A stretch of DNA of 36,723 nt from a virus (lineage: Duplodnaviria; Heunggongvirae; Uroviricota; Caudoviricetes), in IMG/VR virus record IMGVR_UViG_2851976983_000007. One strand, written 5' to 3'. The stretch's first letter is position 1. Each line of letters opens with the position of its first letter. Below are positions 26,338 to 31,606 of the stretch, one piece after another. A model generated the notes under the pieces. The model was not told the origin of the DNA. It searched no databases and saw nothing but the letters and a program-made list of their open reading frames with translations. Both the position numbers and the translations under genes were made by a program.

Positions 26338-26362
26338 CGGGGCATAAAAAATTTATGCCCCG
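26338..26362 (+). terminator. Hairpin GGGGCATAAA-AA-TTTATGCCCC downstream of Q
   Basis: Seen in sequence; no clear U-tract. Confidence 0.35.
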
Positions 26363-27747: not shown

Positions 27748-28707
27748 TTACTCCTTGTCCATTGCGTACAGCCCATTAACCAGAGCAAACTGTGGCACCC
27801 CGTCCGCGATGAAAGTCGCATTAACTCCGCAGGCTTCGCGGATAGCGGGTGCCACAATCTCCGCCCCGCCACCGACAACCATCACCCGCCCGTAACCCGA
27901 AAAACCCGCCAGCGCGCGGATCACGCGTTGTTTCAGTGTTTCTTCCTTTTCACGAATAACCGCCATCAGGCTGTCGTAATGCGCGTCATTGTGGATGTGC
28001 TGGCGCAGCCAGGCTTCATCATGGCGATGTTCGATAATGGTATTGGCGATGTGGTGACTGGTACGCATACCGTTAGTGGCCATCACCGACAGTACGGCAT
28101 CGGCCATCAGGGAAACGCCTACGTGTGGATCGCAAAACACCTGGCTGATACCTGCCAGTTGTCCCTGAACCTTTGCCACATCCAGCGTGGTTCCGCCTAA
28201 ATCCACAATCAGCAGGGATTCAAACGGACTCATGTCAGCCAGTGCTTTAAAGCCAGCCGGAATGGATTCAGGCATAACCCGTACGTTACGGATAGTGAAT
28301 GCTTCGCCGTTCTGGTACTCCACCGGGCGCATGACGTTCGCTTTTTTGCGGTTGATGTTGGCCATGTCCGGCTGTGCGTTTGTGTCGAAATATTCGCTCA
28401 GTGGCAGGGTGACAACCACATCCACTTCCTGTGGTGTGATGCCTGATTTGACCAGCGCGTGATGAATGGCAATGACATTCACATCGCTGTACTGGTATTG
28501 CGTGTCGGTCGTCTGGACAAAGCGATCGCTGACCGGATCAAAACCATAGCGCACGCCATCAAGCATGTAGTTCGCGGGCTGCGTGCCACCGAACGGCGCA
28601 GACCATTCCGACTTGAAGCTGTTCGGGCTGATGGCGTTGCGGCGTTCGCCGTTCTCAGTCCATGCCAGCTTGATGTTGGTGGAGCCGTCATCGATACAAA
28701 TTTTCAT
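27748..28707 (-). CDS. parM: ParM/StbA-like actin-family ATPase (type II partition NTPase)
   Basis: MKICIDDGSTNIKLAW...YSDVNVIAIHHAL...VMPESIPAGF...LLIVDLGGTTLDV...GYGRVMVVGGGAE matches R1 ParM along its length. Confidence 0.9.
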   Translation of the reverse strand: MKICIDDGSTNIKLAWTENGERRNAISPNSFKSEWSAPFGGTQPANYMLDGVRYGFDPVSDRFVQTTDTQYQYSDVNVIAIHHALVKSGITPQEVDVVVTLPLSEYFDTNAQPDMANINRKKANVMRPVEYQNGEAFTIRNVRVMPESIPAGFKALADMSPFESLLIVDLGGTTLDVAKVQGQLAGISQVFCDPHVGVSLMADAVLSVMATNGMRTSHHIANTIIEHRHDEAWLRQHIHNDAHYDSLMAVIREKEETLKQRVIRALAGFSGYGRVMVVGGGAEIVAPAIREACGVNATFIADGVPQFALVNGLYAMDKE

Positions 28708-28736
28708 GTCGCTTTTCCTTATGTTGATTAATTAAT

Positions 28737-28850
28737 CGCTTACGGGATTCTGAAATCCCGTTTTTGCCTGTTTTATGCGCGCTTCATATATCGCGGCGCG
28801 TTTTTTGCTCATTTACGGGATTTGTGAATCCCGTTTCTGTCTGTTTTTTG
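28737..28850. promoter_or_regulatory. Two direct copies (about 73 bp apart) of a 20-bp palindrome ACGGGATT-N4-AATCCCGT each followed by a T-rich tract, upstream of the parM-like gene; candidate parC-like centromere/operator
   Basis: Seen in sequence at about 28742-28761 and 28815-28834; architecture resembles ParR sites flanking the par promoter. Confidence 0.5.
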
Positions 28851-28987
28851 TTTCCACTGGTCAGGCCACCCCGCAGCAGGTCTGCTTTGCGGCGGGCGCG
28901 TTCAGTGGTTTCACTGATTCTCTGTGCGTGCTCTGCGTCGCGGATGGCGCGCAGCATGTCAGAAAGCACGGTAACGGGTGTTTTCAT
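28784..28987 (-). CDS. Hypothetical small protein (67 aa) between A and the par module; its 3' end overlaps the palindromic repeats
   Basis: ORF only; weak SD. Confidence 0.3.
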   Translation of the reverse strand: MKTPVTVLSDMLRAIRDAEHAQRISETTERARRKADLLRGGLTSGNKKQTETGFTNPVNEQKTRRDI

Positions 28988-29185
28988 GGTGTTCTGGTCC
29001 TGCTGAAGTGTGGATGCCAGGCGTGCGGCGGCTTCGGGGTCTGATGCCCCCAGCTGTTCCAGATAGCTGGCGACCGGGTTATGGCGGATCTCCGTGCTGC
29101 TTACGCCGTGGTTACGGCTCAGGCGCTGCCAGAGCTGCGTGATCCGGCTGTCCGGTCGGGTATCCGGTTTGCGTACAATTTCAAA

Positions 29186-31606
29186 TCACTGCGGTGCAAT
29201 GATGCTGCCGTCGACGTACAGACTGCCGCCCCGTAACAGGTGCTGCATCTGCTGTTCACCGATATGCAGGCCGAGAGATTCAGCAGACTCCCGCCATTCT
29301 TTAGCGAGTAACTCGTGGTTATCAGGCAAAGGCCGTGGCTGTTTGCGGCTCTGTGTCCAGTTCTGCATTTCATCACTGCTGTTTTTTGCCTGTTTGTCAC
29401 GCAGCGAACGCATCAGCGCCCGGCGTTCGTGCCGTTTCAGTGAGCGCATCCATTCATTCACGTCAACGCCGTCAGGAAGCTGCGGCCACGGTGCTGGCCG
29501 TTCTTCCGGCTGTTCTGTCCCGTTGTTGTCCGTTTCCTGTACACGGGGACAGTTATTGCCACGAGTCCAAGGGGCGGCAGGGCCGCCCTGAAGGTCAAAA
29601 CCATTTTCGCGGGCGCTGTCTTCCGCTTCCGGTTTACGTCTTACCAGCTTCCAGTTATCCGGATGTGTGCACACACGGGAAGACTCCCCGATGAGCGGTG
29701 ACCAGATCCCGTAAATCTGTACGCTCTGTTCGCCGTAATCGTTCAGCTCATCTGCGAGGTCGTAGGCGGTGCGAATCAGGTAGTCTTTGCGTGGAACAAG
29801 TACGCCGCCCTGTTTTTCAATGTAGGAGGCAAAACACCCGGCATCAGCGGCAGCGAGCACTGCATCCATTGCGTCATCCTTCAGTCGTTGCGGGCCTTCC
29901 GGGTTGCGTGCCATCTGGCTGGCAAGGCGGCGCAGTTCACGCCACACCTGACGGGAGGGGATGCCAAAGAACTGGAACTGGCGGACCCGGTGAAGGCGCG
30001 CCCAGCCGATGGCGCGCTCCACGCTCTCGGCCATTGATTTTCCGGTTTCGTGGTCAACGCGTGGCTTGCCCGTTTTCGGGTCGATACCATCCACGGCGCG
30101 GCTGTCCAGGTTCTTTCCGATGTAGGTGGCGATGTAGCTGGTTGGCGTGCCTTTTGAGCCGTCGACGTACTCCGCCTTAAAACGCGGAGTTATGTCATCG
30201 CCCAGCTCGTGGCGGTCTTCCTGAATGGCAATATCGCAGACGTGGGACACGATGGTTTCAATCTCGTCCGGATGTGCAAAGACCATCATATGCCAGTGCA
30301 CAGTGCCGTCATGGTGAGGCTCCACCGTGCGGATGCCATACCAGCGAAGACCGTCGCGGTTCAGTTTTTTGCGGACCGCCGCAAAAAACGTGTTAACCAG
30401 GTAATCGCTGGAGTCGCGCATGGTGGCCCCGTTCCATTTGGGATTCGGATGACCGTTCTCTGTTGTGGCGTGGTATTTTGACGGGCAGGTGACAGTCAGA
30501 AACACCGCTCTGTCGCCACGGGCTTCGGCCAGAAGTTCCAGTCCCTTCATGGTGGCCATCATTTCTGCCTTACGGTGAACCGGGTTACTTACTCCCGCGT
30601 AATACACCGTCTCGAGATCAATCGTGAACCCGTCTTCATTTTCCAGCATGAAACTTTTCAGGAAATCGCGTGTTTTCTCGCGCTGTGCGCGAAACTCGCT
30701 TAACGCGTCCTGGCTCAGATAGGGTGATGTTTTTCTGGAAACCAGACAGGCGGCGCGGAGTTGTTCTTCTCTCCACTCGCAACGTAACAGCCACAGTTTG
30801 CGTTTCCACCATTCCGCACAGGTCAGGCGAAGGATTGCGCCCGGCAGCAGCTCCGTGTCCGGTTCGTTCCTCCGGTCTTTGTCTGTTGTCAGTGCGTCAT
30901 AATGTGGAGGCATGGCGTGCAGGTGTAACGCCATGCGGGCCAGCATCTGATACGCCTTCAGCGTTACATCCATGGTCAGTTCGCCATCAGTAGCGCCAAA
31001 GCCATCGCAGAGTTTTTCGAAGGTGCTGCTGAACATCGCCGCCGTCATGGTGGCCAGCGTCTGTATCTGGTGTTTGTTGAGCTGCGGCAGGTAAAGCAAA
31101 TCGTCCAGGCGTTCGCGTCCGGCAAGGGAGCGATAACCCGGTGTCAGCCAGCGGTGATCGGTGCGGTCCAGACGTTCGAATATTTTGCACAGGGTTCCGC
31201 GCGCGTAGCGTTCCGCCTGCCAGCTCTTTTTGCCTTTCTGACGATCGGCTTCCTGCTTCTTGCGCAGGAAGGAGAGGTGGCGAATAAGCGGATCGCGCAG
31301 ATAGGACGGCAGCAGGCGCAGCGAGGCCATGGCTTCATCCACCGCGCCGCGTGCCTGTTTTCTGGCGTCTCCTGCCAGTGTGATGGTTTTGTCCTGTTTT
31401 TCCTGTGCGTCCAGGCTTTTATTAATCAGGTTGCCCAGCGGCGTGGCGGAGAACGCCGCATCAGCCATTTCCTGGCGGCGCTCGTTCTCTACCCGGTAGG
31501 CATCCAGCCAGGAGGAAAGCGCGGATTCAGGAGCGGAGATCCCCGTTCCTTCACGCCCCACTGCGTGGCGCGGTTGTTGCCAGTCCCTGATGTACTCTGC
31601 CGTCAT
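29186..31606 (-). CDS. A: Replication initiation protein A (rolling-circle endonuclease)
   Basis: 806 aa; ...[24 protein letters not shown]... parallels P2 gpA ...[22 protein letters not shown]... Confidence 0.9.
   Translation of the reverse strand: [806 protein letters not shown]

Follow-up and report, generated by a model that had tools for sequence, protein, structure and literature searches.

Genes and features of the locus

The DNA analysed here, called the window throughout (the whole stretch of 36.7 kb), is a P88-like prophage (genus Xuanwuvirus, P2 family). The 2.9-kb segment around the palindromes described below shares 96-98% identity with Escherichia phages 520873, 503458 and P88 and with Citrobacter phage Shae_phiSM. 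Its minus-strand genes run in the order gpA, parM, a ParR/StbB-family gene and variable cargo, with cos and the portal gene following on the opposite strand (Table 1). The par cassette occupies the gpA-gpQ hotspot of the prophage, and the genes downstream of parR differ among relatives. At the edge of the cos region, 28 nt past the portal stop, there is a hairpin with a perfect 8-10-bp stem (GGGGCATAAAAAATTTATGCCCC, 26339-26361), which is likely a terminator or a cos-associated element.

Table 1. Genes, palindromes and conserved blocks around the gpA-parM junction of the window
Feature	Coordinates	Strand	Evidence or content
gpA replication endonuclease	28784..31606	-	Pfam Phage_GPA, 1.4e-129; in-frame TGA at 29186-29188
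Distal conserved block	28799..28848	-	A-rich motif AAAAAACAGACAGAAAC, palindrome, then GTAAATGAGCAAAAAAC; from the per-column census
Distal palindrome, ACGGGATT-N4-AATCCCGT	28815..28834	.	Within the last gpA codons; encodes ..TGFTNPV..
Variable central spacer	28775..28798	-	Two alleles; includes the gpA stop TGA (28784-28786)
Proximal conserved block	28713..28774	-	TAAAACAGGCAAAAAC, palindrome, GTAAaCGATTAATTAATCAACAT, then Shine-Dalgarno AAGGA (28720-28716)
Proximal palindrome, ACGGGATT-N4-AATCCCGT	28742..28761	.	In the 76 bp between gpA and parM, 35-54 nt before the parM ATG
parM, actin-like segregation ATPase, 319 aa	27748..28707	-	Pfam StbA_N, 1.8e-82; ParM_N, 1e-68
parR/stbB-like adaptor, 103 aa	27432..27743	-	Pfam Plasmid_stab_B PF10784, 2.4e-23

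The two downstream genes are readily classified. ParM aligns with the ParM of plasmid R1 (PDB 1mwk) over residues 2-316 at an E value of 1.3e-92, with the IDDGSTNIK and DLGGTTLD motifs aligned, and it is 52% identical to R1 ParM. The parR gene starts 5 nt past the parM stop, and its product aligns with R1-family ParR/StbB proteins in the N-terminal region and in the C-terminal N-I-x-x-L-F-P tail, which matches the ParM-binding tail region of R1-family ParR. ParM and ParR are therefore bona fide members of the type II (R1/StbAB) family. In ParR proteins, DNA is read by an N-terminal ribbon-helix-helix part (PMC5016525). The segment M-x-x-x-T-R-R-I-S-F-Y-L-K-P at the ParR N terminus, which together with the next helices is invariant in 28/28 clade members examined, appears to correspond to this DNA-reading part; the middle and C-terminal parts fall to 42-57% identity across the clade. 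An AF2 monomer of ParR was of low confidence (pLDDT 57.7), with helices where expected and the N-terminal strand unmodelled, and a PDB sequence search with ParR gave no match at E<=1. Earlier literature already mentions the P88-type par cassette as a putative partition system; we found no description of its cis site in the literature searched.

The upstream gene is interrupted in the window. In relatives gpA encodes 940 aa and ends at the equivalent of window position 28784, 76 nt before parM. The codon that reads as an in-frame TGA in the window is GGA (108) or GGG (4) in 112 related loci, and the TGA shortens gpA to 806 aa; the replication protein of this prophage may be defective or shortened. 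The first-pass annotation had noted a 67-aa ORF (28987..28784) whose 3' end is overlapped by the downstream palindrome. The overlap stands, but the ORF is no gene of its own: it shares the gpA frame and equals the final 67 codons of gpA as found in relatives (940 aa), so that it represents the C-terminal tail of gpA, severed by a nonsense mutation. The distal palindrome is accordingly in the final codons of gpA, and the proximal one in the short intergenic region.

Within gpA, at about 29519-29590, a 45-70-nt stretch is 82-91% identical to gpA of P2-like phages that are dissimilar elsewhere, from Klebsiella, Salmonella (SopEPhi, SEN8) and Yersinia, and is a candidate for a conserved replication origin or nick region. 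The palindromes themselves were also considered as a P2-family replication origin or gpA nick site. We rejected this, since they stay with parMR when the upstream gene changes (see below) and the segment common to distant P2-like phages is the one just described.

Two palindromes in direct repeat units upstream of parM

The sequence ACGGGATT-N4-AATCCCGT occurs twice in the window, with no third copy. Each palindrome is a perfect 8-bp stem with a 4-nt loop, and their starts are 73 bp apart. On the plus strand the proximal copy reads ACGGGATTctgaAATCCCGT and is followed by TTTTTGCCTGTTTTA, and the distal copy reads ACGGGATTtgtgAATCCCGT and is followed by TTCTGTCTGTTTTTTG; the paired architecture reported in the first-pass annotation, including the T-rich run on that strand, is thus borne out. 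Each palindrome is held in a 38-nt direct repeat (28740-28777 and 28813-28850, 82% identical) that also includes an A/T-rich flank, the T-rich tail of the plus strand. A 17-nt A/T-rich motif family, again T-rich on the plus strand, has three copies. Taken together, two repeat units of about 40 bp lie at -35 to -141, directly upstream of parM.

A scan of the 36.7-kb window for the pattern GGGATT-N2-8-AATCCC found these two places only. Dinucleotide shuffles of the window gave a mean of 0.03 matches, and 0/100 shuffles reached two. On either strand the folding energy of the hairpins is -10 to -12 kcal/mol, and their z-scores against shuffled sequence are -3.1 to -5.4. The shuffle counts, along with hairpin stability beyond that of the shuffles, indicate that the palindromes are real and not the product of chance. 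The 160 nt upstream of parM contain four AAAAC tracts on the sense strand, the maximum for the window (mean 0.59 per 160 nt). Fourier analysis of A-tract periodicity did not find a clear 10-11-bp peak.

The two copies had been thought to bracket the likely par promoter. We found no support for this: neither a consensus scan nor a looser scan detected a sigma-70-like promoter on either strand, be it between the palindromes, across them or close by, although such searches could miss a weak or non-canonical promoter. A weak candidate in the proximal loop, cAGAAT/aAAAAT, whose -35 hexamer matches at 3/6 positions, was not accepted. A scan for a minus-strand terminator between gpA and parM was likewise negative. 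With neither promoter nor terminator detectable between the two genes, parMR is probably transcribed mainly with the early replication operon.

The repeat units travel with parMR

The region upstream of parM was gathered from about 90 loci, which gave 71 distinct sequences (haplotypes). The sources were annotated phages, an IncHI2 plasmid-borne prophage, genomes, IMG/VR contigs and contigs reached through ParR homologues, the last contributing twelve loci at 98-42% ParR identity. Both palindromes are present in 71/71 haplotypes, at a spacing of 72-74 bp. The GGGA/TCC core is nearly invariant, and the GG/CC centre of the proximal copy is invariant. A per-column census resolved two conserved blocks, each holding one palindrome, and the spacer between them is the most variable part (Table 1).

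Three different upstream contexts meet this conserved sequence at the same point, near 28848, where the distal repeat unit begins. One is the gpA tail of P88 type, the next a different ORF (loci L021 and L076), and the third yet another ORF (L083); each upstream ORF reads into the par module and ends at the same TGA. Since the junction is common whatever the upstream gene, the repeats belong to the par cassette and not to gpA, and the left boundary of the cassette is the 5' edge of the distal block. The cassette itself is found in P2-like lineages with differing portal and Ogr contexts. It is present in 1303/5426 complete E. coli genomes (24%), at 1449 places on chromosomes versus 2 on plasmids.

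The most divergent version, from Hafnia (L015/L016), is informative with respect to what is being conserved. Here the distal palindrome has the gpA stop codon at its centre (GGGATTCATGAATCCC), which argues that the dyad is kept independently of coding and reading frame. Between E. coli and Hafnia, the 24 core bases (GGGATT/AATCCC, twice) are identical at 24/24 positions and the proximal block has 22 successive bases in common. Identity is 80% over the aligned upstream region of about 140 nt, compared with about 70% for the third positions of parM codons and 59% for the neighbouring gpA tail. Core identity above the level of third codon positions and of the gpA tail points to selection on the sequence, although all sequences come from one closely related clade and conservation is in part shared ancestry.

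The way in which the stems vary bears on whether DNA or RNA is conserved. Among the 16 stem pairs, 4 never vary in the 71 haplotypes, 12 vary on one side only and none varies on both. Distal variants are wobble-compatible on the plus strand and proximal variants on the minus strand, a split that looks like the pattern expected of random transitions. The absence of compensatory change, which at this low divergence is weak negative evidence, suggests that the element is conserved as DNA sequence, with neither strand showing the signature of selection for an RNA stem. One seemingly compensatory pair, in a GC-rich inverted repeat around the gpA stop (phage 520873), was rejected, 9/10 haplotypes with the left change having no right change. 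Some natural variants weaken one arm (e.g., AAACCC or AACCCC for AATCCC; GAGGG for ACGGG), so that recognition must be tolerant, or the palindrome edges are not contacted. As the ParR N terminus and the dyad cores are both invariant, a comparison of ParR with palindromes for co-variation is without power; an unchanging N terminus would nevertheless fit an unchanged binding site.

More distant relatives proved scarce. Genome contigs yielded just 3 near-identical loci, viral contigs yielded 80 loci whose ParM is at least 99% identical, and a tblastn search for ParM in plasmids and phages found nothing between the group at 95% or more and the group at 52% or less. A blastn search of the 153-bp region against plasmids gave six matches only, all of them integrated or whole P88-like prophages. 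In metagenome contigs, the motif pair with its 89-90-nt span was found next to parMR only.

Two kinds of match call for separate mention. Most hits of the metagenome scan for the palindrome pattern are unrelated tandem arrays: environmental contigs (L115, L125, L140, L156, L168, L172, L178, L183 and others) hold three to seven copies of GGGATT-N4-AATCCC at a regular start-to-start spacing of 56-86 nt, with no parMR nearby, and these are probably an unrelated tandem repeat family, possibly CRISPR-type arrays. The other is a ParM locus of E. coli type, 98% identical, in the assembly of the Firmicute Vagococcus sp. WN89Y (L027); its contig is 226 kb long, and it looks like contamination or mis-binning.

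A putative parC-like site, weighed against other readings

We consider it probable that the two palindromes with their A-rich flanks are a parC-like centromere, and possibly operator, that ParR of this type II ParMRC cassette would bind. A preference for protein-binding sites over terminators had been expressed in the first-pass annotation, and several results speak for it: a genuine ParM/ParR pair lies directly downstream, the palindromes are conserved without compensatory changes and remain attached to parMR when the upstream gene differs, and no conserved plus-strand gene requires a terminator. Position adds an argument by analogy, since in known type II systems parC is immediately upstream of parM (PMC5016525). 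ParR may read the dyads, the A4-5C tracts or both.

An unlikely variant is that the dyads bind some other protein, of the host nucleoid or of the phage (for example, one linked to replication), and that ParR reads only the A4-5C tracts. In keeping with it, the distal copy is inside gpA, the tracts resemble R1-family iterons, and none of the six other parM loci inspected shows a counterpart of GGGATT/AATCCC. However, the palindromes go with parMR and not with gpA across the three junction types, the part of gpA common to distant P2-like phages is separate from them, the cassette contains no further DNA-binding protein gene, and the genes past parR are variable.

It also seems improbable that the palindromes work as RNA elements of a minus-strand gpA-parM transcript, as a processing, stability or translational-coupling signal formed by the hairpins or by distal-proximal pairing. 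The sense strand does fold the same hairpins, at -10.7 and -11.3 kcal/mol (z -5.4 and -4.4). Moreover, because the palindromes are identical, RNA from either strand can pair the distal with the proximal copy as one long stem (28710-28855), which encloses the gpA stop; on the sense strand this 146-nt region reaches -36.8 kcal/mol. It is probably also part of the gpA-parM message, given that neither terminator nor promoter was detected between the genes. Yet none of the 71 haplotypes supplies a compensatory change, and the one-sided changes leave the sense RNA with C.A or A.A mismatches, at distal pair 7 alone in 22 haplotypes. An Rfam search of the region returned no meaningful family match, and the conservation extends to the A-rich flanks, which a simple hairpin does not explain.

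A terminator scan picks both palindromes, on the plus strand only, as stem-loops with a T-run, in agreement with the first-pass annotation, and they fold there at -12.0 and -10.2 kcal/mol; most distal variants are G.U-compatible on this strand. If they were intrinsic terminators of the plus strand, they would halt antisense transcription that enters the replication gene from the cos/hotspot side, or mark the end of a short antisense RNA over the parM start. We regard this as very unlikely, since the shape is right but there is nothing to terminate: no conserved plus-strand gene or sigma-70-like promoter lies upstream. The earlier statement that no plus-strand gene ends nearby holds for real genes, although two mechanical ORFs (28459..28731 and 28583..28735) do end 7-11 nt before the proximal hairpin. 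We rejected both as genes: each is a shadow of parM on the opposite strand, and in Hafnia the longer of the two has two internal stops. The distal T-run is interrupted and poor (TTCTGTCT), proximal variants mismatch on the plus strand (A.C, 23 at pair 1 and 13 at pair 3) as expected from random transitions and not from strand-specific selection, and the portal gene already has the strong hairpin at 26339-26361 after it. The T-run is in fact the complement of the sense-strand A4-5C tracts (e.g., AAAAAACAGACAGAAAC and TAAAACAGGCAAAAAC), and the terminator shape can be traced to a dyad beside iteron-like A-tracts of the kind typical for R1-family centromeres. Finally, a functionless relic, a duplicated segment palindromic by accident, would suit the mere two copies and the variants that degrade single arms, but is hardly credible beside E. 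coli-Hafnia core conservation above the synonymous-site level, a 72-74-bp spacing kept in all haplotypes and a cassette carried by 1303 complete E. coli genomes.

Comparison with known partition sites

If the parC-like reading is right, the nearest relatives are the R1/R100 sites (ParMRC = StbA/StbB/stbDRS, type II). The likenesses are an actin-like ParM, a ParR of the same Pfam family, repeats directly upstream of parM in two blocks around a spacer, and A-tract-plus-C motifs; an R1-type parC (L007) has nine AAAAC in 200 nt, and in IncI/IncL-M relatives the AAAAC motif is on the other strand. R1 parC consists of ten direct 11-bp iterons (5+5) that flank the parA promoter, which is repressed by ParR (PMC5016525). 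In contrast, the prophage site has two 20-bp dyads in units of about 40 bp and no recognisable promoter, its spacer is variable and carries the stop codon of the upstream gene, and its host element is a chromosomal prophage. The unlike architecture, two dyads with no recognisable promoter, counts against the parC-like reading. Other R1-family parM loci that we inspected also have upstream repeats. On a Serratia liquefaciens plasmid (L008), the interval from -209 to -17 of parM contains a perfect hairpin with a 16-bp stem and several TACTCAATATGAGTA-type dyads around the promoter region, and this would be another ParMR locus with a palindromic putative parC.

A unit of about 20 bp, bound by a ribbon-helix-helix dimer-of-dimers, is found in pSK41 parC and in Arc/Mnt operators. 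The prophage dyads are similar in length, and the putative ParR stoichiometry given below follows by analogy, whereas the pSK41 repeats are contiguous direct 20-bp units. Ribbon-helix-helix proteins accept direct or inverted half-sites, as in the case of the omega protein (PMC5016525).

Partition cassettes on integrated elements have precedents. The srpMRC system of SXT/R391 ICEs is, like the P88-type cassette, a type II partition cassette on a normally integrated element, and it acts on the excised circular form (PMC4489591). It differs in that a ParR domain is not recognisable in SrpR, SrpM is only distantly related to ParM and the host element is an ICE, not a phage; binding and stabilisation by srpMRC were shown by experiment. 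AlpAC/alpS of the Corynebacterium prophage CGP3 is implicated in phage DNA transport and replication after induction, and it resembles the P88-type cassette as a prophage-encoded actin-like filament with a DNA-binding adaptor for specific phage DNA sites (PMC5539076). The AlpAC proteins are unrelated in sequence to those of the cassette, and their host is Gram-positive.

A model for the cassette and its implications

A mechanism can be proposed for the parC-like site by reference to these systems. Dimers of ParR, a putative ribbon-helix-helix protein, would bind each repeat unit of about 40 bp, with the 20-bp dyad taking a dimer-of-dimers as in Arc/Mnt-type operators. The unit spacing of 73 bp is about seven helical turns and would place both complexes on the same side of the DNA, and two ParR-bound units on one face could join into a single ParR-DNA complex. 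The conserved C-terminal tail of ParR would then capture growing ParM filaments, which would push circular phage genomes apart or position them. The nearly exclusively chromosomal location of the cassette, combined with its likely co-transcription with gpA, suggests that the substrate would be the excised or infecting phage circle and not the integrated prophage.

More tentatively, the dyads may serve a working phage centromere, through which ParR and ParM position or segregate P2-like circles once infection or induction has occurred, or sustain an extrachromosomal carrier state, and not be a leftover of plasmid maintenance; we put this forward as a possibility with the balance of our judgement against it. 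A complete P88-like genome has been deposited as a 34.5-kb circular E. coli "plasmid" (L108 = NZ_CP148288.1, 1-34461), with genes from integrase to parMR, gpA, tail and head genes, hok and ogr. This record may represent a phage circle, excised or replicating, or else a by-product of assembly; it is compatible with a phage centromere and proves nothing.

Most likely, to judge from the repeats and the genes beside them, the palindromes are an ordinary, uncharacterised member of a well-known type of system, the type II parC. Their description carries an annotation warning, in that a dyad beside A-tracts mimics a terminator on the opposite strand. With the par cassette in 24% of complete E. coli genomes, locating the putative cis site gives a 150-bp target for work on the question of why a P2-like phage that integrates should retain segregation machinery of the actin type. 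The importance would be greater if the cassette gives P2-like phages an unexpected extrachromosomal or DNA-positioning stage, and a working phage centromere, if true, would apply to about a quarter of E. coli P2-like prophages.
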